Source: a virus
IMG/VR virus record: IMGVR_UViG_3300010400_000004
Coordinates: 1 to 64,000 of that record
DNA: 64,000 nt
Strand: one strand, 5' to 3'
The translations under genes and the position numbers were made by a program. Below the pieces are notes generated by a model, which was not told the DNA's origin, did not search any database, and saw nothing but the letters and a program-made list of their open reading frames with translations. Below, in pieces: positions 23,099 to 47,582 of this stretch (positions are counted from its first letter, which is position 1; every line of letters starts with the position of its first letter).

Positions 23099-23272
23099 GT
23101 TGGGCATTGTCCGCGATCCCCGATTACGCGGGTGGTCTCTCGCAGTCTTGAGTCGGTAGCGAGCCGAAACAGAATCCGCAATCTCCCACGGTTTCAGCAC
23201 CTCGCACCTAGCTCCAGACCAGCTACGGTCCTACTCCAGCACGGGCGACGGGGACAGCGGACAACAACCAAC
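23099..23272 (-). ncRNA. 174-nt rod-shaped structured RNA, 6S-RNA-like candidate
   Basis: 5' GUUGGUUGUUGUCCGC pairs with 3' GCGGACAAUGCCCAAC; nested UCCCCG/CGGGGA, CGC..GUG/CAC..GCG and GUAGC/GCUAC; begins 7 nt after a TATTGT -10. Confidence 0.65.
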
Positions 23273-23278
23273 ATCGAT

Positions 23279-23306
23279 ACAATACACCTTCCCAGGAAGG
23301 TGTCAA
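23279..23306 (-). promoter_or_regulatory. Sigma70-type promoter TTGACA-N16-TATTGT with a palindrome across the spacer
   Basis: Exact -35; ACACCTTCC-TG-GGAAGGTGT inverted repeat at 23284-23303. Confidence 0.7.
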
Positions 23307-23308
23307 AT

Positions 23309-23536
23309 TTATTTTATGTTCCCCATGCCTTCAGGAAATTTCCCAGCTCGAACATGCTCCAGCCACCAGACACGGCGTTCGGTAACTTCTTTCACCGCCC
23401 TTTTATAGAGTATCGGGATCATTCTATTCATTAAATCCGGAAGACACGCATGGCGATATTCCGCGATGAATTTACACTGCCTAAAGTGGCGGAGTCGGAA
23501 GACGGCGAGCTTCAGGTCGATCCATGCTTTATTCAT
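23309..23536 (-). CDS. Hypothetical protein
   Basis: ORF overlaps the upstream stop by 8 nt. Confidence 0.45.
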   Translation of the reverse strand: MNKAWIDLKLAVFRLRHFRQCKFIAEYRHACLPDLMNRMIPILYKRAVKEVTERRVWWLEHVRAGKFPEGMGNIK

Positions 23537-23891
23537 ATCTCGGGGCTTCGATCCAGGGAGTGAGAAAAACTCCATTCGAAGAATCTTCTTTGCTTTTGCA
23601 TCTTAACGGAAAGCCTTCCGACACTCTTCGGGGATCGTTTTCGATAGCGTGAATCTGAGGAAATTCGGGACGTTTAAACAGAACAGGAGAAACCCGATCG
23701 AATCCTTGATTACGTAGGAATGAAAGTTCGTAAGGTGCGTTCAGCCATTCCGGATTGATGACCCAAATACCACCGACTTTTTTATAGGATGCAGCAGTTT
23801 TCCAGCATCGATCGAAAGTAATCGCCGGGGGCAGCACTACCGTCCCGGCGACGGCGGCTGCGAGGGTTTTGAAAAAGCTTCGGCGGTTCAT
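23529..23891 (-). CDS. Small protein with twin-arginine (Tat)-like signal
   Basis: MNRRSFFKTLAAAVAG matches the S/T/N-R-R-x-F-L/F-K consensus. Confidence 0.6.
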   Translation of the reverse strand: MNRRSFFKTLAAAVAGTVVLPPAITFDRCWKTAASYKKVGGIWVINPEWLNAPYELSFLRNQGFDRVSPVLFKRPEFPQIHAIENDPRRVSEGFPLRCKSKEDSSNGVFLTPWIEAPRYE

Positions 23892-24289
23892 TTTTTGAGA
23901 TAGTCGATTGCACGTTCGAGCACTTCGGGATTTTCCTTAATGTGACCGATATACATATTGCAAGGAGCGCACAGAATTCCACGCACTTCATTTGTTTTGT
24001 GATTGTGATCTACATGCGGACGATTCATAATTTTTTGACAGATCACGCACCGGCTATTTTGCTCACGAAGCATTGCCTCGTATTGTGTAGCAGACAATCC
24101 ATATCTCGCTTTTAGGTGTTTGAATTTTCTTTTTACTTTGGTGCGGGGTAGCTGGTCGTATTCTCTCTGTTTAGTATTTTCACAGGTAAAACAATGTCTA
24201 TTACGATACAACCCTCCCGGAACTTTTTTGTTCTTCTGTAAACGAAACTCGTGTATCGTTTTTTCTTTCTTGCAAGTTTTACACGTCAT
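23888..24289 (-). CDS. Endonuclease VII-family (HNH-like) homing endonuclease
   Basis: YGLS...Y..M...Q..RC.IC...HVDHNH.T..VRGILC..CN..IG. Confidence 0.9.
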   Translation of the reverse strand: MTCKTCKKEKTIHEFRLQKNKKVPGGLYRNRHCFTCENTKQREYDQLPRTKVKRKFKHLKARYGLSATQYEAMLREQNSRCVICQKIMNRPHVDHNHKTNEVRGILCAPCNMYIGHIKENPEVLERAIDYLKK

Positions 24290-25297
24290 TTATTTCTTGA
24301 TGATGAGGTGTCCTTTCACCAATTTTGCATCTGAACGAAGAAAAGGCGTATAATACCCCCTGTCAAAAAACATGTTAAATTCAAGTCGGCATCGGGTTAT
24401 TGATCCGTCCTCCGGATTAACCTTGAATTCGAGGATCGCTCCACCAACTTCCATACGAAGACGCTTCTTCCTTGCGAAAATGGTTTGATTTTGAAACCCA
24501 GGCATTCCGATGACATGGACATTTCGGTCGTTCATGTAGTTACTGACGTGGTAATGACCCTGCACCAGAATAGCCGGTTTCTCGCCGCCTTGAAAAGCTT
24601 CCACCTGCTTCTGGCCTGTGTAGCTGCGGGCGTATGTTGACCCGCCTCCTGGGTGCTGAACCTTGATGATGACGCTTCGCTTCGCACCTTTCACTTGAAC
24701 CTCGACATCCGATTCGATGTGGCCGATGTAGTGTAGGTCTGATCGGTTCGCTGTTTGCGCTACGTGTTCGAGATACGCGCCGAAATTGAAACCCTCTTTT
24801 TGCCACCAACCTTCGTGATCGTCGCCTGTGATAAAGTTCGTTGTAATGCCCTTTCTGGAGGGATAATTGTCCACCACAAACTGCGCCTGACCATCAATGC
24901 TCGTTTCTAAGGCCGATCCTCCGTTGATATGCGGCACGTATCCGTCAACGATGTTCCCCGCGTGAAGCACTGTAGTCAGACCCTCGCGTTTAAACAGGTC
25001 ATATTGCGCGTGCAAGCTGTCGAGTCGGCATTCTTTGCACGCGAGGTGCGTATCAGAGACGAGGCCGAAACGAATCCAATCCCCGCCATCGATCGATCTC
25101 AGCGGTATGTAACCGAAGTCCGGAGCGTCGAGTTTTATGTCATGCTTGAGTTTCGGCGCGTTTGGGGAATACGTTAGTTTACGCTCCACCGATTTCCGGC
25201 TTCGACCCAGCAGCTCCGCTATTTGGCGGTAACTTTTTCCCGACTCTTTTAGTTTTTCGGCTTGCGCCAGTTCGTTTGTCGTCCACGGATTGTTCAT
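24290..25297 (-). CDS. Calcineurin-like metallophosphoesterase with N-terminal HTH
   Basis: SDTH, HAGNIVDG, GDDHE, HPGGG, GHYH; N-terminal SYRQIAELLGRSRKSVE. Confidence 0.85.
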   Translation of the reverse strand: MNNPWTTNELAQAEKLKESGKSYRQIAELLGRSRKSVERKLTYSPNAPKLKHDIKLDAPDFGYIPLRSIDGGDWIRFGLVSDTHLACKECRLDSLHAQYDLFKREGLTTVLHAGNIVDGYVPHINGGSALETSIDGQAQFVVDNYPSRKGITTNFITGDDHEGWWQKEGFNFGAYLEHVAQTANRSDLHYIGHIESDVEVQVKGAKRSVIIKVQHPGGGSTYARSYTGQKQVEAFQGGEKPAILVQGHYHVSNYMNDRNVHVIGMPGFQNQTIFARKKRLRMEVGGAILEFKVNPEDGSITRCRLEFNMFFDRGYYTPFLRSDAKLVKGHLIIKK

Positions 25298-25868
25298 TTG
25301 TTTTCCCTATTTGTTGTTCGAGCTGCATCTGCCGTTCTTGTAACCATTCCACCAATTTATCCGGCATCGGATCGCCGGTAAAAAGACTGTCGAAAGCTTC
25401 GAGTGCTTCCCGGGGAGTTTTTCCGATGCCGACTACCGCATTATCCAAGTCCTCCAAGTCTCCGATATACGCCAGCCACTCGCCAGTAACCGGCAACCGG
25501 TTGAGTATCGGCCTATACGAAAAGTGTGGCGTATTCACTTCACGCGCTGCCTTGGTTTGTTCCTCGATGAAAACCGATTGTTGGTCGTAAATTTTTTCGA
25601 GTTTTCCCTCCAGCGTGTGCTGGGAATCGAAAGTCCATCGATCGGTGTCGTTGAGTATATCGTCGAGTTTGTCGCACACCTTGATAAACAGTGTCTCCGC
25701 ACTCGACTTACAGCCGCCGTCGAGTTCGATACTTTTCTGCGGTTCCGCGTGATTGCCAGCAATCATACTGGAGACGGCGAAACTGCCGACCTGAATCAAA
25801 TTGGAAATCTGATTGTAGGTAACAACGTCTCGCTGCGGGAAAGGAACTTTTGATTGTTGATTGCTCAT
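25179..25868 (-). CDS. Hypothetical protein with HicB-like G.G.T..EAL motif
   Basis: 229-aa ORF in the operon; VVGIGKTPREALEAFD. Confidence 0.55.
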   Translation of the reverse strand: MSNQQSKVPFPQRDVVTYNQISNLIQVGSFAVSSMIAGNHAEPQKSIELDGGCKSSAETLFIKVCDKLDDILNDTDRWTFDSQHTLEGKLEKIYDQQSVFIEEQTKAAREVNTPHFSYRPILNRLPVTGEWLAYIGDLEDLDNAVVGIGKTPREALEAFDSLFTGDPMPDKLVEWLQERQMQLEQQIGKTNEQSVDDKRTGASRKTKRVGKKLPPNSGAAGSKPEIGGA

Positions 25869-25871
25869 GTA

Positions 25872-26357
25872 TTATTTCATTCTACCAAGTCGATTATTCG
25901 CCCACAACCAAATCCACACGGCATCAACTCCGTTATCGTCGAGGTTTTCTGAACCTGGCATCGGTTGAGTTTTCCACAAAGCTTTGGCCATAGCTTCTTT
26001 CGTTGCTGCCCCGTTTCCGGTTGCAAATTTCTTCAAAGTTCCGACCGGGATGCAATCGAAATGAGAACCGAGGGCACAGAGCCAAACTGCACCTCGCAAA
26101 CTCGACCAGAGTTGAACCTGATACGTGCTGCTGGCAAACTCGACATCTTCTATTGCGACAATATCGAACGCGCCGAGTGCGGTTAAATTCTCGCATAGCC
26201 GTTCAATCCTAGGGTCTTTTGTCCGTCGCTGCCGATCGTGGCCCCAGGCAGTGATTTCTTTCTTCGTGGCAAGTTCCCAGGTGCCGCAAAAGAACTGTTC
26301 GTTCTTATTGTAAGCGTAGCCAGTATGAGTGCCTAAATCCAGGCCCAAAATATTCAA
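25872..26357 (-). CDS. RuvC-like Holliday junction resolvase
   Basis: ILGLDLG..TGYA, VAIE, LKKFATGNG.ATK..M, DDN..DA. Confidence 0.85.
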   Translation of the reverse strand: MNILGLDLGTHTGYAYNKNEQFFCGTWELATKKEITAWGHDRQRRTKDPRIERLCENLTALGAFDIVAIEDVEFASSTYQVQLWSSLRGAVWLCALGSHFDCIPVGTLKKFATGNGAATKEAMAKALWKTQPMPGSENLDDNGVDAVWIWLWANNRLGRMK

Positions 26358-26956
26358 AGCAGTTGATCCTTCTTCGATTGTAGCACCACGCGCAATTTTT
26401 TCAAAGCGCCTGAGTGCAGGTTTTGTATATGCTGTCGAGAGTATCCGAGCCGATCTCCGATTTCACCGAATGAAAAACCGGATTCATATCGGAGTATCAA
26501 AATCGCCCTCTCTCTATCATTCAACGATCCGAATATAGCAGGCCGCAGGCCGTTGAATAACTCTTTTGTTTCAAGCCGCGAAAAGTCCGGTTCACAATAG
26601 GTATCGACGAGAGGTTTGTCTTTTTCCGGGTAATCTGCCGAGGTGGTATAAGAATTTTTCACTACAAGGCGGCGTTTGAATTCCCGATTGATCTGACCGC
26701 GCAAATATTGCTTCGTAAAGGCGAAAAATCGGATTCCGTTCGATTTGCGCTTGCGAAAATTCTTCGCGGCCTGCCTGAGAGCAATCCAGCACATCGACAC
26801 GAGTTCTCCCTCAGGAAACTCACCCCGCGAACAGTGCCGGGAATAGTCGAGTGCTTCCGCCATATTGACGAGTGCGAGTTTGTCGAGGGCACGCTTGTTG
26901 CCCTTTTTGATTAGCTCGAATTCTTCGGATGTATCTATTGCTTTGGGAAAATCCAT
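26354..26956 (-). CDS. Phage RNA polymerase sigma70-family factor
   Basis: Region 2 (L..AAKNF.....RF.AF..QYLRGQI) and region 4 (LNDRERAIL.LRY..GFSF.EIG..LG.SRQ.I.NL...ALKKLR). Confidence 0.88.
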   Translation of the reverse strand: MDFPKAIDTSEEFELIKKGNKRALDKLALVNMAEALDYSRHCSRGEFPEGELVSMCWIALRQAAKNFRKRKSNGIRFFAFTKQYLRGQINREFKRRLVVKNSYTTSADYPEKDKPLVDTYCEPDFSRLETKELFNGLRPAIFGSLNDRERAILILRYESGFSFGEIGDRLGYSRQHIQNLHSGALKKLRVVLQSKKDQLL

Positions 26957-29022
26957 AATCGCGATTTGTTTTCTCCGGTCTCAACGAAGCATTTAATCAT
27001 GCCGTCCTTTTGTAACACTTCAAGAAACCGGTTGATTTGTTCGAGTTTGTAACCTCTGAGCAAAAAATCATTCATCGGATTGCTGTTCAACAATCGGGCG
27101 AGTTGTGTGAGAGTGCCGCGCCACTCCGTTGCCTCCGGAGTCTGAGCGAAAAAGTCCTTGAGTTGTTCGAGTAAAATTTCCTTAATCGGAGCTGCCCTGC
27201 TGGTCTGGTGTGTTTGGTCAATCAAATGGGCGTCGTGATACGGCAAATACCCGTATCGACCGTCCCGCGCAATGTAATCGGGCGGAGTCCAGGCGAGGGC
27301 ATAAGCACAGAGTTGCGGCAATTCCGTCTTGAGCCTCTTCTGCAATTCGTATCTCTCGGGAAAATCGATTTTATCGGTAGTGCATCGATACACACAGGTT
27401 TTCTCCGCCGAAGAGTTATCGAGTGATCCGAGTATCCTCGAACTGGTAAAATCCATATTGGCGGTGATGCCAATTCTACCGGCCCACTCAACTGTTACAG
27501 GAACCCGGAATTTTTCGTTCACTCGGAATTCTTGATTCGCTGCCGCCTTTTTCAGCATAGCACTAAACCGGTCGTGAGCACTGAGAGAATTGCCCGGGGT
27601 CTCGTCGTCGATCGCCCACAACGGAACGTGATAGTTTTCTGAGCCAAAGTCGTCGCCCTGCACAATATATTTCGCGGCATCCACGAATCCTCCGACAGTT
27701 GCTCCGACAACATGCCGAAGCGCGAAGGTCTTGCCGCGATTCGCTACACCGAGGATGAAAATATTCTGTCCTGGACGGGGCAATAATTCGTATCCGGAGG
27801 TGTAAAAATGCTTATACCATGCAAGGAACCATTCGAATTGAATCGGCCCGAAAAGCTGTTTGAGGAAATCCAGCACCCACAAATTCTCCGAGTAGGTCTC
27901 ACTCGGACGCATCACGTTGTTACGCCAAGTGTTCAGGACTTTCCGATGATTGTATTCGATTAAGCCCGGTGTGCGATACACGAACGGAGCTGCACCGACC
28001 ACCCGGGCGTTTTCGTGAAGATGAAATAGCGTGTCTTCGATTTTCTTCTCAGGAATGCCGCAACCTTTCTTGAGATAGATTTTCATCGCTGATTCGTTCA
28101 CCGATTGATAAATCCCATCTATTTTTCGCCAGTAAGCTTGCCCATCGTGGTAAATATCTAGCGTTGCTTTTGCGATTGCGCCTTCATTGATCTCTTTGAC
28201 GAAATCTTTGCCGAGGATTTCCGACCAGGGATAGAAGGGTTTACTTGCGTGAGCACTGAAGGTAAGCATGCCTTCAGCTTTGATAATGGCAGAAAGCGGA
28301 CTAACCGATTCGGCAATCCAAAAACTCGGCCCCTGTGTATCAAGATCAAATGCCGAGGGCCATGAAAAACCTGGGAACCTTTCTTTAATCGCCGCTTCCA
28401 CCACTTCAAGAGGGATTTCGTTTCCTTCGGGGGCTTTGAATTTGAACTTTTTGATTGCTTCGACATAGAATGACTGTAGTTGAATTTCACTTACGGCATC
28501 GGGCGAACCAAGAACTTTACGCCAAGCCGCTCCGTTACAGTAAAGACGGGTTGGGTTTTCAAAAGCTGGCGAATCGAGACCCGGAAGTAGATCGAGAGAA
28601 AGCCACTTGCGAGCCATCTGAAGAATCCAGACAGCAAAGTCTGTGGTTTCAACCGCCATCGGACGAGACAATAACCAGACGAGACGGCAATTACCTCCCA
28701 AGGATCGTTCGATCCACTGAGGCTTGATGGACATGGATGCCACGGCTTCGTCGATTCTATCATCGGGGATTCGGACATCGTAATCGGCCACGAAGGCGTG
28801 AATGAACTTGGCGGGGTTATCTTTACTGAGTCTTTGATTGCAGTTGGCGGGTTCGATGGATGTGTAGAAGTTCCATTTTGTGTTATGAGTTCTGTAAAAA
28901 ATTTGTCTCTCATTTTTATCCTGTTTTACTTTTTCGGATGGCATCTGATCTGGTTTGTATTCCCAAGGAATACAGGGGACCAGAACCTTCTCAATTAAAT
29001 TTCCACAGGCAAAGAACTTCAT
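26935..29022 (-). CDS. Primase-polymerase (AEP-like) fused to SF3 helicase
   Basis: N-terminal FVADYD (DxD) and SLGGNCRLVW; Walker A GVANRGKT, Walker B AIDDE, N.KF, TAN. Confidence 0.75.
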   Translation of the reverse strand: MKFFACGNLIEKVLVPCIPWEYKPDQMPSEKVKQDKNERQIFYRTHNTKWNFYTSIEPANCNQRLSKDNPAKFIHAFVADYDVRIPDDRIDEAVASMSIKPQWIERSLGGNCRLVWLLSRPMAVETTDFAVWILQMARKWLSLDLLPGLDSPAFENPTRLYCNGAAWRKVLGSPDAVSEIQLQSFYVEAIKKFKFKAPEGNEIPLEVVEAAIKERFPGFSWPSAFDLDTQGPSFWIAESVSPLSAIIKAEGMLTFSAHASKPFYPWSEILGKDFVKEINEGAIAKATLDIYHDGQAYWRKIDGIYQSVNESAMKIYLKKGCGIPEKKIEDTLFHLHENARVVGAAPFVYRTPGLIEYNHRKVLNTWRNNVMRPSETYSENLWVLDFLKQLFGPIQFEWFLAWYKHFYTSGYELLPRPGQNIFILGVANRGKTFALRHVVGATVGGFVDAAKYIVQGDDFGSENYHVPLWAIDDETPGNSLSAHDRFSAMLKKAAANQEFRVNEKFRVPVTVEWAGRIGITANMDFTSSRILGSLDNSSAEKTCVYRCTTDKIDFPERYELQKRLKTELPQLCAYALAWTPPDYIARDGRYGYLPYHDAHLIDQTHQTSRAAPIKEILLEQLKDFFAQTPEATEWRGTLTQLARLLNSNPMNDFLLRGYKLEQINRFLEVLQKDGMIKCFVETGENKSRLWIFPKQ

Positions 29023-29498
29023 CGAAAATTCGGGGCTGCAAATTTTCCAAAATATTTCTTGGCTGCACGGTCATACGCAATGGCAGCTTCTTTTTCATTA
29101 TGAAAGTAACCTAAATGGAAATGCCGTCCACCCATCCTAAGACCCGCCCTCCATTTACCGGCGAAACGATTCCAGCACACCCCCCGATATTTTGACGACT
29201 TCCTAGCTTGGGGTTTTTGAACAGACATGTGGTTTTGACTGTTAGTTGCTATTCGTATTTTTCTCCGTCGATTATCGAGACCGTTTCCGAATCTATGATC
29301 GACCTCAACTCCGGAGGGAGCGTTCAATACTTCCCGATGCATTAAGACTAGATTCGGTTTCTCTCCTTTAGGACGGTGCCGTGCAGCATAAAACTGCTGG
29401 CCCATTTTAGAAGCATACCATTTGTAACGATTCAACCGGTGAAAATCTCGATTATCCACCATCGCAAATTTTCCTTGCGTCAAAGGTATTAGTTTCAT
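29019..29498 (-). CDS. HNH-AP2 homing endonuclease
   Basis: IPLTQGKFA.VD, MHR, VDH..GNGLDNRR...AT.SQN, SKYRGV, LGYF..E.EAA.AYD. Confidence 0.92.
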   Translation of the reverse strand: MKLIPLTQGKFAMVDNRDFHRLNRYKWYASKMGQQFYAARHRPKGEKPNLVLMHREVLNAPSGVEVDHRFGNGLDNRRRKIRIATNSQNHMSVQKPQARKSSKYRGVCWNRFAGKWRAGLRMGGRHFHLGYFHNEKEAAIAYDRAAKKYFGKFAAPNFR

Positions 29499-29499
29499 G

Positions 29500-29694: not shown

Positions 29695-29696
29695 AT

Positions 29697-35705: not shown

Positions 35706-35740
35706 AAAAAAGTTAGCCGATCGCATCCCGACCGGCTAAC
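35706..35740 (-). terminator. Intrinsic terminator
   Basis: GTTAGCCGGTCG-GGATG-CGATCGGCTAAC then T6 on the - strand. Confidence 0.8.
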
Positions 35741-35768
35741 CACTTGAACCCGAGCAGCTTAAGACAAA

Positions 35769-37932: not shown

Positions 37933-37936
37933 ATTT

Positions 37937-39055
37937 TTAGTCTTCTTTGTTCACCGCTTGCAAAAATACTGCTTCGCGTCCTCTTTCTACCACTTCCGCC
38001 TGTTCGATCACAACTTTAAAATCTTGGATCGCTTTTTTCTTGCTGCCTCGTGGTTGTTTGAATCCGATTGCGTCTTCGACTGCGCCGAGACCGACTTCGA
38101 GCGTCTGATTAAATTCCTCTTCCGTCAGATAATGCATCGCGTATTTTTTGAATTCAGGAAGGTTCGTCACTTTCCGACTGCCAGCCCGAGATTTCAATTG
38201 ATAACCGTCAGGAAGCGGAGCGCCACGTAGCACTCGATCGCACGTAACCTTACGAAAAGCTTCAGACCATACCTTCATTACCTGGGCGAGCTGCATTCCG
38301 AGGGAGGTGTTTGCGGGGTCTTGAATCATTGACGGCGTGACACTCTCAGGAATTTTCAGTGGGGAAAATTTATGTCCAATCTTTACAGCAAATTCCGTTA
38401 CCTTCGGACAGACCCCGACGTGCTTACAGAACAGACAATTCGGAATAGTCGGATTTGCAGAAGAAAAGTCGGCTTTTCCCCGCGCCTCCCTCGCCCGAGC
38501 GACCACCACTGTAACTCGAAGTAGGAGCGCCGGGATTTCTTCCCGTTTAAAGACATGCTCCGACACAACATCGATCGCTGGCTGTTTGAAGAAGAATCGT
38601 ATTGCTTCCAGTTTAGGAAACGCTTTAAAAAGTCCCAGGACATACGCAATTGCTTGAAGATTGTTTTCTGTTTTCTCGACCGCCCAAAGGCCCGACTTCC
38701 AGTCGAAGGCTTCGCAATAAGTTCCGGACCGATCAATGAAAGCACAGTCAAAATATCCAGCAGTTGTTTCGTTATCATCCACCGGAAGATATGTCTCTGA
38801 AATTTCAGTGAGCGGGCCTTTTAACTCCGAAACACATTGTTTTCTTTTTTCGTAAAAATCCAGGCAATCCGCCGCAATTTCAGCATCGTCGTCGCTGAGG
38901 GAATTATCATCTGTTCGATCTTCAATCGCTTTGTGGATTTTGGTGCCGACTTCAGCTCTAATATGAGTCTCTGAATTGCCCTGCCAGTGAGGGCAAGACT
39001 CTAGGGCTTGGAGAGTGCTTGGGGAATATTCGTGATGCTTGCGTTCTTCGCTCAT
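37937..39055 (-). CDS. PD-(D/E)XK Cas4-like exonuclease
   Basis: H...SPS......CP, GT.IH, G..D, DWKSG, N.Q...Y, C.FC....CP. Confidence 0.85.
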   Translation of the reverse strand: MSEERKHHEYSPSTLQALESCPHWQGNSETHIRAEVGTKIHKAIEDRTDDNSLSDDDAEIAADCLDFYEKRKQCVSELKGPLTEISETYLPVDDNETTAGYFDCAFIDRSGTYCEAFDWKSGLWAVEKTENNLQAIAYVLGLFKAFPKLEAIRFFFKQPAIDVVSEHVFKREEIPALLLRVTVVVARAREARGKADFSSANPTIPNCLFCKHVGVCPKVTEFAVKIGHKFSPLKIPESVTPSMIQDPANTSLGMQLAQVMKVWSEAFRKVTCDRVLRGAPLPDGYQLKSRAGSRKVTNLPEFKKYAMHYLTEEEFNQTLEVGLGAVEDAIGFKQPRGSKKKAIQDFKVVIEQAEVVERGREAVFLQAVNKED

Positions 39056-39534
39056 TGAAAATTAAGTCTCGCGAATTTTCCGAACTGAGATTTAGCTGCA
39101 CGATCATAAGCCTTAGCTGCATCTTGTTCATTCGCGAACGAACCAAGATGTTGTTTTTTGTTGTCGATTGAGATTTGGGCCGTCCATGATTTATGGTTAC
39201 AAGCCAAGGACACTCCCCGAAATTTAGAATGCTTGTTGTCCGGAAGCTTAATCCGGTTAGCGTGGTTCTGACTCCGAGTTGCAGGTCGGAGGTTCCGAAT
39301 CAAATTATTGAGGGAGTTTCCGTCTTCGTGTTCTCCGTCGAGCGGCTGACCCCGCAACTTGAGAATCTCCCGGTGGAGAAGGATGGTTTTCTTTTTTCCA
39401 TTTCGGATTACGTCTCGGGCAGCGTAAAATTTACCACCGCCATTGCTGAGAGAATACCAGTTATATTTTACTGCCCAGGCGAAGGTTTTTGGATCGACTT
39501 CTGTTGAAAGCCCCCGTGTAAGGAAAATTTTCAT
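39052..39534 (-). CDS. HNH-AP2 homing endonuclease
   Basis: LHREI, EHEDGNSLNN...NLR.AT.SQN, SKFRGV, LGSF..E..AA.AYD. Confidence 0.9.
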   Translation of the reverse strand: MKIFLTRGLSTEVDPKTFAWAVKYNWYSLSNGGGKFYAARDVIRNGKKKTILLHREILKLRGQPLDGEHEDGNSLNNLIRNLRPATRSQNHANRIKLPDNKHSKFRGVSLACNHKSWTAQISIDNKKQHLGSFANEQDAAKAYDRAAKSQFGKFARLNFQ

Positions 39535-39725
39535 AACTCATAACCTGTCAGTTCTTTCAATCTCTTCGCCACTTTCCACAAGGCGATTGCTTCGATTTGC
39601 CTGAGTCGAGTTGTGGAAATGCCGAATTGCGCGGCGACTTCTACCGGCGATTTGAGGGGCGTCAGTTTGTTTGCGATTGCCGCGCCGATCCTCAGCCGCT
39701 CTTTGTTTTCGGGAGAGAGTGTCAT
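39531..39725 (-). CDS. Stand-alone sigma70 region-4-like HTH protein
   Basis: S..EVA..FGIS..R.RQIE..AL.K. Confidence 0.7.
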   Translation of the reverse strand: MTLSPENKERLRIGAAIANKLTPLKSPVEVAAQFGISTTRLRQIEAIALWKVAKRLKELTGYEL

Positions 39726-40033
39726 ATCAAAAGCCTCGAAAATTTTTGATGAAAACCCACCAGAGAAAAATCACGGTGGCGATTACGCCGAGTATTACCC
39801 CGGCCAGGATTAACAAGAGAGTTGTCATTTAGCACCTGCCTTGAACCGGCGATATTCCGGCTTGTCAGATCGAAGATTTTCGTGCCGGGTGATGCTGAAT
39901 TTCTTGCCGTCCGCATCGACGTTGTGATAGACAACCATTTGGACGTTCTTGCGTTCGGAGGTGGAGACTACTGTTCTGGCTTTCATGTTTCACTTTCTGC
40001 TGGCGCTTTATTGCTCCAGCTACCGAGTTTTGT

Positions 40034-40225: not shown

Positions 40226-40237
40226 ATTTGAACTGTG

Positions 40238-41877: not shown

Positions 41878-42105
41878 GACGATAAACTCCGACGAACAAT
41901 TTGTAAACCTGAATCATCCAGCGGCGACGGGCTGGGCAATAAGAAAAATCCAGCCATCGAGTGCCTTCGTAGTATCTTTGCCATGCCCAATGAATTTTCA
42001 TGCCCGGGAAATCCACGCGATGATTTTGAACTGAATCCTCAGACGACCGATGCAAATCGTTTTGATCGGTCCGACTGCATACCAACGGAAAAAGTTTCTC
42101 ATAAT

Positions 42106-42378
42106 TTAAACGTGGCGAGTAACGAGGTAAAAGGAGGTGTAAAGTCCGGTCTCTCGATCCGAGCAATTATACCACTCGAATTTTACGACATTCTTGTTGA
42201 AGTCGCCAATCTCGGGAACCTCGGTCGCGAAAAACATTATCTGAGGTGCCCACGGAAACCCAGGCCGGAGATTCACCGGGCAAAAAGCGATGTCGCGCTT
42301 GCCCCACAGGGCACGCGCACGGGCTTTTGATACCCGGGTGAAGGTGGTTGCGCCCGACTTGATGGTAAAGTGCCTCAT
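42106..42378 (-). CDS. Hypothetical early protein
   Basis: ORF downstream of promoter 42673-42700. Confidence 0.55.
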   Translation of the reverse strand: MRHFTIKSGATTFTRVSKARARALWGKRDIAFCPVNLRPGFPWAPQIMFFATEVPEIGDFNKNVVKFEWYNCSDRETGLYTSFYLVTRHV

Positions 42379-42385
42379 AAACGAT

Positions 42386-42631
42386 TTAGAGCGACAAGAA
42401 CGCTTCGATTTGTTGCTTGGTGAAACCTTCACGAAGAGCCTTCGCTCGAAAAACGTCAGTCTTGGAAACCGGCTTACCGAAAGCTCCGAAGGAAGGCCAG
42501 GAGTTTTGAGAAATGCGGGACAATGCTTCGGCGCGGGACATTCCGCCGACAAAATCCACAAAAGCATCTTGAGTCGCTTGCTCATCGATACCGCCGAATG
42601 TTCCGATTACTGGTTTGAAGTTTTTGCTCAT
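42386..42631 (-). CDS. Hypothetical early protein
   Basis: First ORF after the promoter and leader hairpin. Confidence 0.55.
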   Translation of the reverse strand: MSKNFKPVIGTFGGIDEQATQDAFVDFVGGMSRAEALSRISQNSWPSFGAFGKPVSKTDVFRAKALREGFTKQQIEAFLSL

Positions 42632-42644
42632 GTTTTTTGTTTCA

Positions 42645-42664
42645 GTCCGCCTTTATTGGCTGAC
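42645..42664 (-). repeat. 20-bp leader repeat copy 1 (GTCAGCCAATAAAGGCGGAC)
   Basis: Identical to 50018-50037. Confidence 0.85.
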
Positions 42665-42672
42665 CTACCCAC

Positions 42673-42700
42673 ACAATAGTCCATCCCGCGCCATTGTCAA
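42673..42700 (-). promoter_or_regulatory. Promoter TTGACA-N16-TATTGT
   Basis: Exact -35 in an intergenic gap. Confidence 0.75.
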
Positions 42701-42781
42701 CAGGTGAGGAAGAAAATAATTGCGATTATCCGCAAGTTCCTGATACGCATACACCTGCAAGTGTATTCGATTCTATCAGAC

Positions 42782-42997
42782 TCACTGTATTTTTTCAACC
42801 GAAGAAACATCGTTGTCGAAATAGGCCATGATTGTGTTCGTGAGGTTCACCGCCATCGTGAGCGATAGCGTGAATAACTCGAACCAGTCCATAGACTGCC
42901 ACGTCGAGGCTTTAAATCCTTTCGTTCCGGCCAGGAAAACCACTGCGGCGGCAGTGAAACCGTAACAAGCCCGCTTGAAAATTTTTCGCGCTTTCAT
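42782..42997 (-). CDS. Small two-TM membrane protein
   Basis: Two hydrophobic segments; ATGA-coupled to the secreted FN3 gene. Confidence 0.55.
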   Translation of the reverse strand: MKARKIFKRACYGFTAAAVVFLAGTKGFKASTWQSMDWFELFTLSLTMAVNLTNTIMAYFDNDVSSVEKIQ

Positions 42998-43923
42998 TTT
43001 GTTCGAGCGGCAATTGTTGCGGTATATGCCGAGGTGCCCGTGCTATTCGATCGGTTAGCGCGAAAATAATACAATCGCTTTCGCTTGAGGCCGCTCTTTG
43101 TAAAAGTCGATCTCGGATACCGGACCGTTCCAGCGAGTATAAAATTGTTGAGGGACATCTCGGAGTAGAAAACCGAAACAGATTCTCCGTCGAGGGTAAC
43201 GTCCCATTGTAATCCGATGGTGTTCCCGGTCGATCCGGTCACTCTGAAATTCGCCGGAGGTGCTGGAGGTTGCGGAGCTGGCGCGGCGGTTACTATGAAA
43301 CTCGTCATCGGTCCGCCGAGCCAGACGGAGGTTCCATCATTCACTGCGAGGTAAGCGTTCCAAGTTCCGAGTGAACTATTGCTATCAACCGTCCAAGTGC
43401 CTGAGTAATTTATCGTCTGCCCGGGAACAATCGTCTGTGCGGATACTGCTGGAGTTGCCCAGCGATACGGACCATCTGCGCGAGTCGCTCCGGGTTCGAG
43501 TAGCGTAAGACTGCCTTGAGTGACTACATAATTTGCAGTTCCAGTATTTTTAATCGTCGCAGTGAAGGCTATAGTCTGTCCGATTGCGACACTTGTTTTA
43601 TCAACTGTCGGGGCTGTGAACACAAGGTTCGAAGTTGCCGGGGGCGCTATATAAGTGGCGGTGCTACTCGGTCCCGATTCACCACCGCTGTTAAAAGCAG
43701 TGACGTAATAAACCGTGGTGACGGTCGCCGGTCGAGAAAACGTAAGATCGCTGGTGGTTCCGACAGCAGAAAAATTTACTCCGCCGTCTGTCGATTCAAA
43801 CAATTTATATCCCGTTGCTCCGGACGAGGGGTCCCAGGCCAGTGTTACCGTTGCTGCCTGAGAGAAAACCTGACATGCGAACAGCAAGAGGGAGGTTAGT
43901 ATCGATGAGGTTAGTTTTTTCAT
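42994..43923 (-). CDS. Secreted FN3-Ig-FN3 protein
   Basis: Start at MKKLTSS signal peptide; VTLAWD...GYK...YYVTAFN..GES.PS; Ig-like TATIKNTG; PPAPPANF...LQWD...YYFR. Confidence 0.8.
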   Translation of the reverse strand: MKKLTSSILTSLLLFACQVFSQAATVTLAWDPSSGATGYKLFESTDGGVNFSAVGTTSDLTFSRPATVTTVYYVTAFNSGGESGPSSTATYIAPPATSNLVFTAPTVDKTSVAIGQTIAFTATIKNTGTANYVVTQGSLTLLEPGATRADGPYRWATPAVSAQTIVPGQTINYSGTWTVDSNSSLGTWNAYLAVNDGTSVWLGGPMTSFIVTAAPAPQPPAPPANFRVTGSTGNTIGLQWDVTLDGESVSVFYSEMSLNNFILAGTVRYPRSTFTKSGLKRKRLYYFRANRSNSTGTSAYTATIAARTK

Positions 43924-44455
43924 TGTAGGTAGTTTGTTGTGTAAGGACGTTGAATCGACTAAGGAACAAGTCTCGGACTGCGGAGCGGGGCAAACTTTCG
44001 CCCCAGGAAAAATCCCACCAGTCGATCGGGTTCGGCGCGGCGACGATCGGAATATCTTCGTCTTTGCCGAAATAGCACGACTCCGCATACATAGCGGCTG
44101 CATCGGCTTGATGAACGAGAGGCGGCAGCGGAAACTCGAATCCGAATTTGGCTGCGATGATGGTCATTAACCGGTTTTCATAGTGCTGATATTCCGGCAT
44201 GCCGCGTTTAATCGGCTTCGCTAGATCGCCCAGGTATGCCTCGCTTGCATCGTGCAATAGCCCAGCCAGCCCGGGACCGGCATAGCTGACATAAAGCGAA
44301 TGAAGACCCACGCTGTAAAAGTGCGGGATATGTCCAGCCCATCGGCAAACCATACTGAGGGAGTGGGCGATGTCCGAGAGATGAATGTCTGCGGGGTCTG
44401 GTTCAAGCGGATAAAACTTAGTGCCCGAGATCGTTCGAATAAAATCACTCTTCAT
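43805..44455 (-). CDS. HD-domain phosphohydrolase (YfbR/5'-deoxynucleotidase-like)
   Basis: DIAHSLS..CRW.GH...YSV..HS, LLHDASEAYLGD...P.K, AD. Confidence 0.88.
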   Translation of the reverse strand: MKSDFIRTISGTKFYPLEPDPADIHLSDIAHSLSMVCRWAGHIPHFYSVGLHSLYVSYAGPGLAGLLHDASEAYLGDLAKPIKRGMPEYQHYENRLMTIIAAKFGFEFPLPPLVHQADAAAMYAESCYFGKDEDIPIVAAPNPIDWWDFSWGESLPRSAVRDLFLSRFNVLTQQTTYNEKTNLIDTNLPLAVRMSGFLSGSNGNTGLGPLVRSNGI

Positions 44456-44660
44456 ATATCGTTGAATGAACTTCCAGCTTCAAAATTCGCAAAGTTGTGT
44501 TCTTAGACCAACCTGATTTCCTTTTGGCAATTTCAGGCTTGACGTAGTTGTCTCGATGCCAAATAGCCTCAAAAAGAGTCTCGTGGTTTTCACCGATGAC
44601 GTATTTTTTACCGTCCTTCGGATCGACTGCTTCGACTTGCCAATACCGTTTGATTATCAT
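44445..44660 (-). CDS. Hypothetical protein
   Basis: ORF between dcd and the HD gene. Confidence 0.5.
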   Translation of the reverse strand: MIIKRYWQVEAVDPKDGKKYVIGENHETLFEAIWHRDNYVKPEIAKRKSGWSKNTTLRILKLEVHSTIYEE

Positions 44661-44700
44661 GCTGCTACCTTCTCAAGAAGCCACGCCGTTGATTTAGTGC

Positions 44701-45303
44701 TCACAATTTTGCTGTAGTTATTCCAGTTTGATTTTGGTATTTTCCTTTTTTATCGGCATACGAAATTTTACACACGTCCGAGGCTTGGAAAAAAATCAAC
44801 TGTGCGATACCTTCGTTGGCGTAAATTTTCGCGGGCAATGGAGTCGTGTTCGAAATTTCGATGGTGAGGTGTCCACTCCATTCTGGCTCAAGAGGCGTGA
44901 CATTCACGATGATACCACACCTTGCGTAAGTGGATTTGCCAACGCAGAGAGCGAGAATGTCCCGGGGTATTCTGAAATACTCTGCACTGACTGCGAGCGC
45001 AAAGCTATTCGGCGGAACGATGCAATATTCTTCCGTATCAATCGTAACGAAGGCATCGTCTCGAAAATCCTTAGGGTCAATAACGGTGTTGTGGACGTTG
45101 GTGAAAACTTTGAATTCGCTGCCAACTCGAATGTCGTAACCGTAGGACGACAAACCGAAGCTGATTGCTTTTTCAGAGATAACCCCGCCAGGAGATTGTC
45201 TGATTACTTCCCTTACTTGGTGGTCGTGAAACGGATTTATCATCGAGCCGGGGCCACGACCGACACAACGCTCTGAGATTTGTTTATCACTTAACACGCT
45301 CAT
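44701..45303 (-). CDS. dcd: dCTP deaminase
   Basis: [60 protein letters not shown]. Confidence 0.96.
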
Positions 45304-45629
45304 ATTTCATCTATCTTTCTACCGGCCACGCCTGCGATCACCCAATTTATTCCCCGGCGTCGTTCATTCTGTAATTCTGCCTCGCGCCAGGAACAATATT
45401 TCTCATCGAGACGGCGGATTGTTTCTTCAGAAAATCTTCGGTCTCTATCGCAGAGATGTTCGAGATTAGGTTGTAGTGTTATCAGGATGAGATTTGCTGT
45501 CAACAATCGGTATCGTAGTTTTTTCTTCGCCGTCTTTGATTACCTGAGGTTCGAGTGTGGCATCCCCGGGCCACGGCACGGTTGCGTTCGTCATATCCTC
45601 TGTAACTATTTTGGTTTTGTCGTCGTTTT

Positions 45630-46634
45630 TCATAGAGCGAGGAATTCTGCGGTTGTTAGTAGTCGGTTAGTCGGGCATGGCAGAGAATCGTTCCAGATAC
45701 AGTGCAGCTTCGGACCGACTCGTTGTTTTGAGATTTGCTGTGTCAAATTGTTATCGAGACCACGAGCGAGTTTTTCACTCATGTCGGCGGTTTCCGGTGA
45801 GTCCGTCTTGAGACCAACAGAAGCAAGACGAAGCGCCCAGGTCTGCGGCGAACACGTTACATGAAAATGTTGCCAGCCATCGGCAATTAGCTTTTTGTAT
45901 TCGTTGTTGAATCGGCAGTTTGTGACCGCCATTTTTCCTTCAGTGACTTCGGAACGTCTGAGTAATCCATCGATCCACAAATCTCGATTCTTTCCATATT
46001 TAGACCACTCCACTCCACCAAAATCGATGAGCTTCTGAGCCGCGAGAGATCGCACCATCAAACAAAACATTGAGCGTTCTACGGTATAGGGATACTGTTC
46101 GTTGACTTCATCACGACCAAATTGCCCGATCTGCTGAAGCATCTTCCGGATTCCAGCAATATTTTTTCCGTCGTTTGCTGTAACCTTTACCCCGGTGAGG
46201 TATTCAACGAGGGCATACATCGGGTCAGCGAAGCCGAGAACTTTTGCGCCAATAGCATTAGCGAGATAGTCTTTGCCTACTCCGATCCGGCCAGTAAAGA
46301 AAATTTTCCCCCCAATCGATATTCCGTTTATTGATCCGAGTGGTGGGACTGAGGCGGTAGGACTTTGTTCGGATACTATCGATTGGGAGGGTGAAGACTG
46401 CGAAGTAAACACAGGATCGGTGGTGATGACCGAGGTGCCCCTTCGGTCAAAGACTTGTGCTATCTCCGCCCGAGCTTCAGGCGGAACTACTGCCCCGGTG
46501 ATCTCCGGATTATTGAGGAAACCAACCAGGCCGCGCAGTGCGGCAGCTTCAGTGCCGAGATTGAGTTTGTCGAGGGGCTTCTTCAGCTCACCCGGCTGCA
46601 TTAAATCTTTTGTGTCGGCAGAAAACTTATCCAT
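45630..46634 (-). CDS. Deoxynucleoside monophosphate kinase-like P-loop protein with N-terminal extension
   Basis: FTGRIGVGKD, FADP, R..LQ.IG..GR, W, VT.CRF.NE, SE. Confidence 0.8.
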   Translation of the reverse strand: MDKFSADTKDLMQPGELKKPLDKLNLGTEAAALRGLVGFLNNPEITGAVVPPEARAEIAQVFDRRGTSVITTDPVFTSQSSPSQSIVSEQSPTASVPPLGSINGISIGGKIFFTGRIGVGKDYLANAIGAKVLGFADPMYALVEYLTGVKVTANDGKNIAGIRKMLQQIGQFGRDEVNEQYPYTVERSMFCLMVRSLAAQKLIDFGGVEWSKYGKNRDLWIDGLLRRSEVTEGKMAVTNCRFNNEYKKLIADGWQHFHVTCSPQTWALRLASVGLKTDSPETADMSEKLARGLDNNLTQQISKQRVGPKLHCIWNDSLPCPTNRLLTTAEFLAL

Positions 46635-46839
46635 GTTTAAAAGGTGCCAGATTTTGCGTCGAGTCACAACTCTTTTCTATGGTGAAATCGGGGAGGTGTC
46701 CGTGCCGGTCAAAATACCAGACTAGCTGTTTAAACAGTGCTTCACGATCTTTCTTCGCCTCCGGACATGCGACCAAGGCGGCATCGAGCCGAGCGTCGAT
46801 GGTGTGTTTCAGCCAGCCGGGTAAAATAATGCAGCTCAT
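46627..46839 (-). CDS. Hypothetical protein
   Basis: Coupled ORF in the operon. Confidence 0.5.
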   Translation of the reverse strand: MSCIILPGWLKHTIDARLDAALVACPEAKKDREALFKQLVWYFDRHGHLPDFTIEKSCDSTQNLAPFKHG

Positions 46840-47150
46840 AACGATTTGGCCTTCGTAGCATCCAGAGCTTCGCGAATTACCTGCCTGTCGCCGTCACTTC
46901 CAGCAAAACATGGATTTCCATCAGGATCACAAAGCACCGAAAAAACCGCTTCTCTCAGCCGTGCCACATTAGCGCGAAGCTGATTGCGTTCCTCGATCAG
47001 AGCGAGACCAGCGTTTACCTGGGCAGTCTGGAATTTCTGCGGGGTGGAAATGTCTGTCCCGGCAATACTGAGACTACTATTCAAAGCGGCTAGTCTCCAG
47101 TCGAGAATCTCAGCTCGGAGTCCCATAACATACGTTTCTTCACTCGTCAT
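46836..47150 (-). CDS. Hypothetical protein
   Basis: ATGA-coupled on both sides. Confidence 0.55.
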   Translation of the reverse strand: MTSEETYVMGLRAEILDWRLAALNSSLSIAGTDISTPQKFQTAQVNAGLALIEERNQLRANVARLREAVFSVLCDPDGNPCFAGSDGDRQVIREALDATKAKSL

Positions 47151-47389
47151 AATTTCTCCATTCGAGCGATGAGCCGCCCGAGCCTCTCCGGAATTTCCCG
47201 GGCCGCTTCGCGTGTCTGCTCCATTCCGAGCTTCGTTCCTTGCAAAATGCCCGAGAGAACTTGCTCCCGGTGGCGGTAATTTTCACAGGCGGTGTGTGCC
47301 CATTCTTCGCAAGCGAGGCGAACAATTTCAGTCCACTCTGACATCGGTCGAGAGTCGAGTTGTTTAGCCGCTATTTCCCAAGGCTTCAT
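47147..47389 (-). CDS. Hypothetical protein
   Basis: Coupled ORF. Confidence 0.5.
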   Translation of the reverse strand: MKPWEIAAKQLDSRPMSEWTEIVRLACEEWAHTACENYRHREQVLSGILQGTKLGMEQTREAAREIPERLGRLIARMEKL

Positions 47390-47582
47390 AATGTTCTCGC
47401 AGTCCTTTTCTTAGTTTTCTCAGAGCGGATCGCTCCAGTAAATTTACGTTTTGCCGAGTAGTGTTGAGGATTTCCGCTACTTGGTCAGCGGTTCGAATTT
47501 CAAAATGATACATGGCATCCTTGGCCGGATAAACCCGCTTGCGCGGGTTATTCCGGATTCGAAAAACCTCGTCAGACTCCAT
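47364..47582 (-). CDS. Stand-alone sigma70 region-4-like HTH protein
   Basis: RT..QVAEIL..TRQNV..LE.SALRKLR. Confidence 0.75.
   Translation of the reverse strand: MESDEVFRIRNNPRKRVYPAKDAMYHFEIRTADQVAEILNTTRQNVNLLERSALRKLRKGLREHYEALGNSG

Follow-up and report, generated by a model that had tools for sequence, protein, structure and literature searches.

Sigma region 4 binds both the -35 promoter element and the beta-flap tip, and isolated region 4 of sigma-70 is able to bind the beta flap. T4 AsiA-MotA and gp33, Thermus P23-45 gp39 and S. aureus phage G1 ORF67 bind sigma region 4 or the flap without resembling region 4 themselves. GerE, SpoIIID, archaeal Tfx and T4 gp24.3 are known or presumed sequence-specific regulators. 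In E. coli, 6S RNA is co-transcribed with its neighbor (ssrS-ygfA).

The window described here (64,000 nt, positions 1 to 64,000 of IMG/VR record IMGVR_UViG_3300010400_000004) is part of the complete, 74.5-kb genome of an uncultured tailed phage from a soil source (G000). Comparisons were made with a complete sister phage (G001), a genome fragment (G002) and six metagenome contigs carrying the gene of the first of two small sigma-4-like proteins (mini-1 and mini-2). An initial annotation had proposed a sigma switch built from mimics of host parts, comprising a phage sigma factor, two free region-4 mini-proteins and a 6S-like decoy RNA. As judged from sequence comparison, the locus is better described as a sigma cascade of the standard phage type, accompanied by small HTH regulators that resemble sigma region 4; nothing shows a coordinated decoy system of mini-proteins and orphan RNA for takeover of the host polymerase. 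The reading held here with slightly better than even confidence is that of a lytic-type tailed phage with a conventional sigma cascade, in which the mini-proteins would be DNA-binding regulators and the RNA would lie outside the switch.

Phage sigma factor

The compact sigma70-family gene reported at 26354..26956 (minus strand) was confirmed by Pfam, PHROG and NCBIfam matches. Its product (P0001) has 200 aa in two domains: domain 2, whose regions 2.1-2.2 motif falls at approximately residues 50-95, and domain 4, at residues 140-192. Pfam Sigma70_r4 matched at 2.7e-14, the PHROG sigma factor families phrog_351/1740 matched residues 7-193, and NCBIfam TIGR02937 yielded 54.2 bits (cut-off 42.9) over residues 23-191, spanning both domains. 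The PDB matches were to region 4 of SigF, SigB, FliA and RpoH. Orthologues are present in G001 (67%) and G002 (60%). The leftward replication block measures 31 kb, and the gene is located near its distal end. Neither a sigma-2-only partner nor any sigma-4-like ORF beyond those described here was found in G000 or G001.

Promoters and terminators

Two promoter classes had been claimed, the first of which, sigma-70-like, is clear. A promoter of the form TTGACA-16-TATTGT is located at 23279..23306 (minus strand), just upstream of the structured RNA element, and is overlapped by a hairpin (23284-23303) which, on the plus strand, has the form of a terminator. Promoters with hexamers identical to these precede the mini-1 transcription unit (42673..42700, minus strand) and the unit upstream of mini-2 (50045..50072, minus strand); both are followed by a common 20-nt leader hairpin, which is conserved at 42645-42664 in the former and lies at 50018-50037 in the latter, and their orthologues in G001 are weaker. 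A further sigma-70-type promoter at 57548 (plus strand) is conserved in G001. The mini-1 unit is closed by a strong intrinsic terminator with a 13-bp stem and a T-run (35711..35741, minus strand). Host sigma-70-type promoters (TTGACA-N16/17-TATTGT) would drive the entire leftward early and replication block, including mini-2 (early unit), mini-1 (helicase-exonuclease unit) and, near its end, the phage sigma factor.

The second class is represented by a candidate late promoter where the rightward block begins (55131..55160, plus strand); it reads TTGACA-N17-CACCTCT here and TTGTCA-N17-CACTTCT in G001, with both boxes kept and the spacer diverged. A sister CAC-type site before the capsid gene (genome position 72515, outside the window, rightward) is likewise conserved in G001 with a diverged spacer. 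A weaker candidate, TTGCCT-N17-CACTACT (62587..62616, plus strand), immediately precedes the portal-sized gene (62630); its CACTACT box is kept in G001, its -35 box is not. What holds of the second class is the two strict sites kept in the sister phage; the loose pattern was not enriched over shuffles (13 found, 13.6 expected). A separate late promoter type, TTGACA-N17-CACnnCT, is probably present, a class drawn from two to three sites and a single sister genome. Most likely, the phage sigma factor would recruit the host core polymerase to a small number of promoters of the form TTGACA-N17-CAC(C/T)(T/A)CT, all rightward, which precede the portal-sized gene, the capsid gene and the rightward block as a whole. 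A sigma switch is likely, given the phage-encoded sigma factor and the probable existence of a distinct late promoter type; this part of the original proposal stands, whereas a mimic-built system including the RNA and the mini-proteins is unsupported or contradicted.

Small sigma region 4-like proteins

Mini-1 (P0002, 64 aa; 39531..39725, minus strand) was recognized as a free-standing sigma region-4-like three-helix HTH protein by family profile and AF2 model, and mini-2 (P0003, 72 aa; 47364..47582, minus strand), in the early small-gene region, as a second such HTH protein by Pfam Sigma70_r4. Both are real conserved genes. Mini-1 has a 73% identical orthologue in G001 and was found in all six metagenome contigs; its identity to relatives (64-86%) is on par with that of the flanking helicase and exonuclease, between whose homologues it is located in 7 of 7 relatives examined, while other small genes nearby come and go. 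For mini-2, orthologues 43-47% identical were found in L017, L020 and G001 (46% in the last), and the gene is present in both metagenome contigs covering its region.

The best or only family-level likeness of both proteins is to sigma region 4, a likeness that is real in these comparisons but weak at the single-sequence level. Against the Pfam Sigma70_r4 gathering cut-off of 24.1 bits, mini-2 scored 27.8 and mini-1 17.7 bits; Sigma70_r4 was, nevertheless, the top Pfam match in 18 of 18 close mini-1 relatives, and a family profile of 51 sequences matched region 4.2 of SigA/RpoD in the PDB (E 3e-6 to 5e-3). The same profile matched the mini-2 of G001 (E 2e-4). The PDB and NCBIfam matches of mini-2 were to Tfx-type regulators and to region 4 of RpoD/RpoS. 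At the top of the PDB list of the mini-1 profile stood a designed repeat protein; sigma factors made up nearly all the rest. The mini-1 family comprises at least 160 clusters of free-standing metagenomic proteins (55-120 aa), and the 150 representatives listed are nearly all free-standing (42-140 aa). In the ESM Atlas, the clusters closest to either protein, taken as leads only, were viral 'Sigma-70 region 4' clusters of about 75 aa. The AF2 model of mini-1 (pLDDT 89) has helices at residues 5-20, 27-34 and 38-60, and its residues 21-63 superpose on sigma region 4.2 with an rmsd of 1.6-3.0 A and Z of at most 3.5, a Z-score common for small helical proteins. The model of mini-2 is poor (pLDDT 76, below 60 for the N-terminal 30 residues).

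The mini-ORFs had been described as essentially only region 4.2. That they are genuine and sigma-4-like was borne out; their extent has to be revised, because NCBIfam alignments place residues 2-53 of mini-1 and 6-63 of mini-2 against the whole of RpoD region 4, so that both are of whole-domain size (4.1 plus 4.2). Region-4 look-alikes of this size could in principle be exchangeable modules that dock on the flap beside a sigma factor with a displaced region 4 and retarget -35 recognition, a split or auxiliary sigma modelled on T4 gp55/gp33 or B. subtilis SigO-RsoA. The candidate late promoters would fit such an arrangement in keeping a consensus TTGACA even though primary sigmas and the phage sigma factor differ in their recognition helices. 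The phage sigma factor, however, carries a complete region 4 of its own, no sigma-2-only protein is encoded, and nothing points to displacement of the host region 4, an AsiA-like match being absent; a split sigma is thus highly improbable.

Mini-1 retains the region 4.1 motif RxR(I/F)G and the region 4.2 core R-Q-I-E...A-L-x-K, and G14, G35, E45, A48 and K51 are invariant throughout close and wider relatives. Since isolated region 4 can bind the flap, mini-1 may also bind RNAP. At the start of the recognition helix (positions 38, 39, 40 and 43), entropy is zero in the 18 close relatives and 2.2-3.2 bits across the 51 wider relatives. Such a pattern is typical of proteins whose DNA specificity diverges, and a helix invariant within the clade and variable across the family suggests a sequence-specific DNA binder, not a universal beta-flap mimic. 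In the structure of Campbell from 2002, R584 and E585 of sigma-70 reportedly read the -35 hexamer. Their equivalents in mini-1 are Thr-Thr, and these positions vary freely across the wider family, which argues against a generic occluder of -35 boxes and for clade-specific DNA targets. To that extent it tells against the roles originally assigned to the free region-4 proteins, occlusion of -35 boxes or of the flap, in any generic or universal form. Fold and conservation suggest that both mini-proteins bind DNA; they are most likely small sequence-specific regulators of phage genes, similar to GerE, SpoIIID, Tfx or T4 gp24.3, and probably not decoys of the host sigma factor.

The location of mini-1, flanked by the helicase and exonuclease genes amid otherwise variable small genes, and its conservation at the level of these enzymes would also suit a DNA-binding accessory of replication or recombination (e.g., an origin-binding or helicase/exonuclease loading factor) in place of a transcription regulator, with mini-2 as an unrelated early regulator. 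This is considered unlikely, as the likeness of mini-1 is specifically to a transcription-factor domain and its profile also detects mini-2, which is located elsewhere in the genome.

Structured RNA, ORF64 and the insertion

The orphan structured RNA element (23097..23274, minus strand) was delimited by folding. It is 178 nt long and has a 22-bp closing helix, an MFE of -78 kcal/mol and a z-score of -3.5; longer folds reach z -3.8 on the minus and -4.2 on the plus strand. Three G-U pairs, read from the sequence, occur in the closing helix on the minus strand only. The predicted interior is multibranched and does not form a rod with a central bubble. An Rfam search found no family, 6S included, even at E<=10, and neither blastn nor nhmmer found homologues in G001, G002 or any retrieved locus. 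Of the 6S-like RNA first annotated, there remains a real structured element with its own promoter.

Directly downstream, beginning 3 nt past the closing helix, lies ORF64 (22900..23094, minus strand), a conserved 64-aa protein of unknown function with six metagenome homologues (62-83% identity, invariant GDEIDRGLILVRRL core) and no Pfam match; it was not found in G001 or G002. No terminator separates the RNA element from ORF64. Promoter, RNA element and ORF64 form an insertion of about 600 bp at the convergence of two transcription blocks; it is missing from G001 and G002, where the convergent genes abut and leave no room for the RNA element. The RNA, which had been proposed as a component of the takeover, is therefore not part of a conserved system. 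It may be either an ORF64 leader or a separate small RNA; most likely it belongs to the ORF64 transcript, as its leader or as a fragment processed from it, and has no part in the sigma switch.

A tentative alternative, which is possible but falls short of probable, is an independent stable small RNA of G000 that is processed from the ORF64 transcript and unrelated to the polymerase, e.g., one with a regulatory or anti-defence role carried on a moron-type insertion. The strong promoter of its own, the very stable closing helix with strand-specific G-U pairs and the insertion at a typical accessory-gene site are in line with this, whereas the continuity with ORF64, the lack of homologues for covariation and the about equally good folding of the plus strand speak against it.

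The proposal that the mini-proteins imitate host sigma region 4 and occupy the beta-flap tip or -35 boxes as decoys, with the RNA as a 6S-type trap of holoenzyme in one takeover system with the sigma factor, is very unlikely for the RNA and the proteins taken together. The mini-proteins do resemble primary-sigma region 4 above any other solved protein, mini-1 keeps core motifs like those of regions 4.1 and 4.2, and the RNA is as expected in its length, its long closing helix and its sigma-70-type promoter. The RNA, however, has neither a 6S match nor the unbranched interior and is absent from both relatives, a universal mimic should keep one interface and not vary at the R584/E585 equivalents, and sigma-4-like proteins of about 75 aa appear to be common in phages generally. 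Sigma factor, mini-1 and mini-2 do co-occur in the complete sister phage, as had been anticipated, but they do so solely within a single syntenic backbone; whole-genome synteny explains this co-occurrence, which is thus uninformative on joint function.

Comparison with known systems

T4 AsiA-MotA, gp33, Thermus P23-45 gp39 and S. aureus phage G1 ORF67 exemplify how a decoy system would work, by disturbing the contact between region 4 and the flap or taking its place, and the mini-proteins have no sequence or fold similarity to them. The RNA element is like 6S RNA (RF00013) in measuring about 180 nt, in being closed by a long helix and in having both a sigma-70-type promoter of its own and a co-transcribed downstream ORF, and unlike it in having a multibranched interior in place of a central bubble between two helices, no homologues and no counterpart in sister phages.

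Region 4 of primary SigA/RpoD (PF04545; PDB 1KU3, 1KU7, 4G6D) has the same size and three-helix core as the mini-proteins. With mini-1 it shares two motifs, R-x-R-(I/F)-G within the first helix and, within the HTH, G-(I/V)-(S/T)-x-x-R-(I/L)-R-Q-I-E-x-x-A-L-x-K, and a stretch of 26 residues is about 50% identical to SigA of B. subtilis; the mini-proteins differ in being free-standing, without domain 2 or 3, and the first helix is packed differently in the AF2 model of mini-1. GerE, SpoIIID, archaeal Tfx and T4 gp24.3 (DUF2774), with 60-95 aa, likewise consist essentially of one sigma-4-like DNA-binding domain. At Pfam thresholds GerE matched neither mini-protein, and SpoIIID and DUF2774 were absent among their Pfam matches at the thresholds used; Tfx-type proteins were the top PDB and NCBIfam matches of mini-2.

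The phage sigma factor differs from those of SPO1 and phiEco32 in being very divergent, with matches only to superfamily-level models, and its cognate promoter is a candidate drawn from two to three sites. It is like the middle- or late-gene sigma factors SPO1 gp28/gp34, phiEco32 gp36 and PHROG 351/1740 in its length of about 200 aa and in having no domains other than 2 and 4 and, like the small sigmas of these phages, is encoded in an early/replication block transcribed by host holoenzyme; as in the SPO1 and phiEco32 systems, a different -10-type element precedes structural genes.

Genome organization and relatives

The IMG/VR record is 74,533 bp long, carries direct terminal repeats and is rated complete, with the window as its first 64 kb; the only sequencing runs containing it are two soil metagenome DNA runs. 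Megablast of 20 kb returned no DNA-level match among GenBank phages. The complete genome of a sister phage, G001 (74,598 bp), is collinear with this one, about 70% of nucleotides being identical, and a further relative, G002, is a 25-kb fragment extending from structural genes to the polymerase.

The genes lie in two convergent transcription blocks. The rightward block runs from about 55.1 kb through the end and the start of the record to 22,928 and contains the structural genes, two tRNAs and a 2,462-aa virion protein. The leftward block runs from about 53.8 kb to 22,900 and contains small early genes, dCTP deaminase, helicases, exonuclease, DNA polymerase, primase-helicase, the sigma factor, RuvC and endonuclease VII; the sigma factor gene, the two genes for small region-4-like proteins (mini-1 and mini-2) and the RNA element span most of it.

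The structural block ends with the giant 2,462-aa ORF (14771-22159, + strand), whose distal part is only patchily similar to G001 at the DNA level. Among the rightward genes, those for the two tRNAs (Ala-TGC and Pro-TGG, 59007-59163, + strand) follow a sigma-70-type promoter at 57548. The end of the leftward block encodes a 120-aa protein (23529-23891, - strand) that bears a TAT-type signal peptide and is present as a tandem duplicate in G001 (L007 9652-9969 and 10088-10249). HNH-AP2 homing-endonuclease-type genes (29019-29498 and 39052-39534, - strand) are mobile within this phage group, with copies in the relatives' loci at L017 8162-8632, L018 524-778 and L019 5969-6430. A copy is found inside the helicase gene in three relatives, where the tblastn match is split near residue 213-238, which suggests an intron- or intein-less split insertion. 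Gene starts across the genome have A-rich leaders without clear Shine-Dalgarno motifs, and the promoters are of the classic TTGACA/TATTGT form. Together these features hint at a non-Bacteroidota host that makes weak use of Shine-Dalgarno motifs.

Promoters and transcription units

The initial annotation had proposed two promoter classes. The sigma-70-type class is clear, with strong promoters on the - strand (23306, 42700 and 50072) and on the + strand (57548); the last is kept in G001, where the orthologues of 42700 and 50072 are weaker. For the second class, the loose pattern shows no enrichment, with 13 sites where shuffled sequences give 13.6. The strict form TTGACA-N17-CAC(C/T)(T/A)CT is found at 55131, where the rightward block begins, and ahead of the capsid gene at genome position 72515, and at both sites the boxes are kept in G001 with diverged spacers. 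A weaker CAC-type site at 62587 retains only its CACTACT box in G001. As judged from motif and conservation, the CAC-type sites are credible as a small late promoter class, and the candidate late promoters at 55131, 62587 and 72515 would plausibly be read by the phage sigma factor.

The same 20-nt leader is found downstream of two of the sigma-70-type promoters, at 42645-42664 and 50018-50037 (- strand), and forms the hairpin GTCAGCC-AAUAAA-GGCGGAC. In the orthologous G001 leaders the AAUAAA loop is kept and the stem shows a compensatory C-G to G-C swap, which supports an element acting at the RNA level.

The phage sigma factor

The compact gene at 26354-26956 (- strand) encodes P0001, a protein of 200 aa, and its assignment to the sigma-70 family is confirmed by Pfam, PHROG, TIGR02937 and PDB matches. 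Region 4 matches PF04545 over residues 143-189 with 52.8 bits (cut-off 24.1) and an E-value of 2.7e-14. TIGR02937 matches with 54.2 bits (cut-off 42.9), residues 23-191 corresponding to positions 2-164 of the 165 in the model, and the PHROG sigma families (phrog_351) cover residues 7-193. The PDB matches of region 4 are SigF, SigB, FliA and RpoH. Pfam Sigma70_r2 gave no match in P0001; a stretch resembling regions 2.1-2.2 aligns with SigB of S. aureus. By these profile and structure matches P0001 is a genuine sigma-70-family protein in which regions 2 and 4 are both present. Its orthologues show 67% identity in G001 and 60% in G002, and a tblastn search with the sigma factor gave one weak match, to an Arthrobacter phage HTH protein. 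Within the leftward block the gene is close to the distal end, where late-gene sigma factors are usually encoded.

The region-4-like proteins

Mini-1 (P0002, 64 aa, 39531-39725, - strand) and mini-2 (P0003, 72 aa, 47364-47582, - strand) are both encoded by real, conserved genes. Six soil metagenome contigs carry mini-1, and its 17 close relatives (63-86% identity) are all 63-90 aa long and share the invariant stretch S-P-V-E-V-A...G-x-S-T-T-R-L-R-Q-I-E...A-L-x-K. When 1.84 billion representatives were searched exhaustively with HMMER, 160 relatives were found at E≤1e-3, the family size being at least 160 clusters at 50% identity, with nearly all proteins 55-120 aa long. Among the 150 relatives listed, nearly all stand alone as proteins of 42-140 aa and match the whole profile. 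The ten clusters checked consist of metagenome sequences only and bear only automatic COG-type labels, e.g., 'sigma70/sigma32'. A profile scan of genome contigs found no cellular homologue of mini-1, its sole match being 28 residues on a 270-bp contig, and viral-contig scans with the single mini-1 sequence and with a subset of the wider family (A5) found nothing besides G001.

The score of mini-1 itself against PF04545 is 17.7 bits, under the gathering cut-off of 24.1. Sigma70_r4 is the top Pfam match for all 18 members of the close clade, at E-values of 4e-4 or higher, and is matched at E<0.01 by 36 of 51 wider relatives (best 1e-7). A profile of the 51 sequences matches region 4.2 of SigA/RpoD in the PDB (E 3e-6 to 5e-3); a designed repeat protein ranks top, and the rest of the list is nearly all sigma factors. 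The AF2 model of mini-1 (pLDDT 89) has three helices, of which the first is packed unlike that of sigma. Residues 21-63 superimpose on region 4.2 with an rmsd of 1.6-3.0 Å over 35-44 residues at 30-37% identity and Z of at most 3.5, and a Foldseek search of the PDB with the model found nothing at E≤0.001. In the column of the family alignment A4 that holds P0002 residue 46, Cys is found in 34 of 51 wider-family members, within the recognition-helix motif I-E-C-(L/Q/R)-A-L; within the close clade the residue is Ala, Leu, Cys or Thr.

Mini-2 matches PF04545 with 27.8 bits, over the same cut-off, and its G001 orthologue matches RpoS and SigB models at E 2e-6 to 8e-6. The protein resembles region 4 of RpoD/RpoS and archaeal Tfx-type DNA-binding proteins alike; its AF2 model, built from 3 sequences, is poor. 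The mini-1 profile matches mini-2 of G001 at E 2e-4, and the two are therefore distant relatives. The nearest ESM Atlas clusters of both coincide (viral, about 75 aa, 52-188 members, to be taken as leads only) and are annotated as 'Sigma-70 region 4 domain-containing'.

The two ORFs had been described as essentially only region 4.2. They are indeed real sigma-4-like genes, but their size is that of the whole region: in the NCBIfam match, residues 2-53 of mini-1 align with the entire region 4 of RpoD. The N-terminal helix has an R-x-R-I-G motif resembling the L-R-x-R-F-G that sigma-70 carries in region 4.1. Each mini-protein thus has the size of an entire region-4 domain, and such proteins also occur outside this phage.

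The RNA element and its insertion

The RNA element (23097-23274, - strand) is predicted to fold into a 22-bp closing helix with a three-branch interior in both the MFE and the centroid structure (z -3.5 to -3.8), a single-sequence prediction from which the actual fold may differ. Three G-U pairs of the closing helix exist on the - strand only, and a TTGACA-16-TATTGT promoter lies directly upstream. The closing helix stops 3 nt upstream of the ATG of ORF64, a 64-aa ORF (22900-23094, - strand), with no intervening terminator. ORF64 is a real gene with six metagenome homologues; its family is small and conserved, with an invariant GDEIDRGLILVRRL core. It has no known domain, and a viral-contig scan with ORF64 (A6) yielded no further homologue.

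The initial annotation had regarded the element as a 6S-like RNA, a reading that the searches do not bear out. No Rfam model, 6S included, fits the element at the gathering threshold over the window, and the 6S models gave no match at E≤10 on either strand of 22000-26500. In 6S RNA two irregular helices form a rod with a large bubble at its centre; the single-sequence prediction gives this element a branched interior, though the actual fold may differ.

The convergent genes abut in G001 and G002, where the promoter, the RNA element, ORF64 and a doubtful 88-aa ORF are all absent. The element therefore belongs to an insertion of about 600 bp (22929-23575), specific to this strain, that comprises these four features and is located at the meeting point of the two transcription blocks. 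The expected co-occurrence with the sigma factor and mini-protein genes in relatives therefore fails, and the RNA element is not a conserved partner of these proteins. No homologues for covariation were found in G001, G002 or the fetched loci. An exact 16-mer of the closing helix gave 31 viral-contig matches, which were dismissed as chance, all being in unrelated, apparently coding sequence. The insertion of promoter, RNA and ORF64 is a separate small puzzle.

Function of the mini-proteins

In the 2002 structure of Campbell, R584 and E585 of sigma-70 are said to read G:C pairs of TTGACA. Mini-1 has T38 and T39 at these positions and keeps R42 and Q43, equivalent to R588 and Q589; across the family there is variation at the positions equivalent to R584, E585, R586 and Q589. 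The proposal that the mini-proteins are decoys for the -35 element is weakened accordingly, the residues that read it being not all retained. The start of the recognition helix (positions 38, 39, 40 and 43) is invariant in the close clade and among the most variable columns of the wider family (2.2-3.2 bits), and the core residues G14, G35, E45, A48 and K51 are unchanging throughout. Such a pattern is expected if every clade has a DNA site of its own to read. In a mimic of a universal target, such as the flap tip or the -35 consensus, a single interface should stay conserved, so the variability favours sequence-specific DNA binding over a decoy. The same reading is favoured by two absences: neither a sigma-2-only partner nor an anti-sigma-like gene, and no other sigma-like ORF, is present among the six-frame ORFs of this genome, G001 and G002 or among 30 neighbouring proteins scanned with Pfam. 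The ORFs upstream of the mini-proteins (39722-39934 and 47572-47808) were rejected as sigma-2 halves, having no Pfam matches and not being found by tblastn beside the mini-proteins in most relatives. Ordinary sequence-specific DNA binding, rather than action as a host-sigma decoy, is therefore the favoured function, as far as residue patterns and gene content indicate.

Less conservatively, though improbably, mini-1 and mini-2 might belong to a widespread class of free-standing phage region-4 domains that act on RNA polymerase itself. On this unlikely reading they would occupy the beta-flap tip or compete with host region 4, and so switch off -35-dependent host promoters or pass the polymerase to the phage sigma factor. 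If true, it would be a takeover principle by molecular mimicry of a sigma domain. A role of mini-1 in replication or recombination is a live rival, given that the gene lies between the helicase and exonuclease genes in every relative while the surrounding small genes vary, and that its unit starts from the sigma-70-type promoter at 42700 and is closed by a strong terminator (35741-35711).

Interpretation and comparison with known systems

The sigma factor, mini-proteins and RNA had been combined into one mimic-based system for takeover of the host polymerase. The pieces exist, but the joint system is unsupported. On the best reading, the phage runs a standard sigma cascade and has two small HTH regulators of the sigma-4 type, and the RNA-ORF insertion is an accessory unrelated to either. 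If this conservative reading holds, an ordinary phage sigma cascade is described in an uncultured soil phage and little is added. Of use besides is the sizeable family that mini-1 defines: free-standing sigma-region-4-like proteins, metagenome-only and apparently phage-borne with no member of known function, which would be either another family of small HTH regulators or a new kind of polymerase-directed mimic.

Split sigma factors of the T4 gp55/gp33 and SigO-RsoA type have a separate sigma-2-only partner; in the present genome none was found among the ORFs and neighbouring proteins scanned. PF00196 (GerE) is absent from the Pfam matches of P0002 and P0003 at E≤1, and it is by their way of working, not by membership, that the mini-proteins are likened to free-standing HTH regulators of the GerE/LuxR type.
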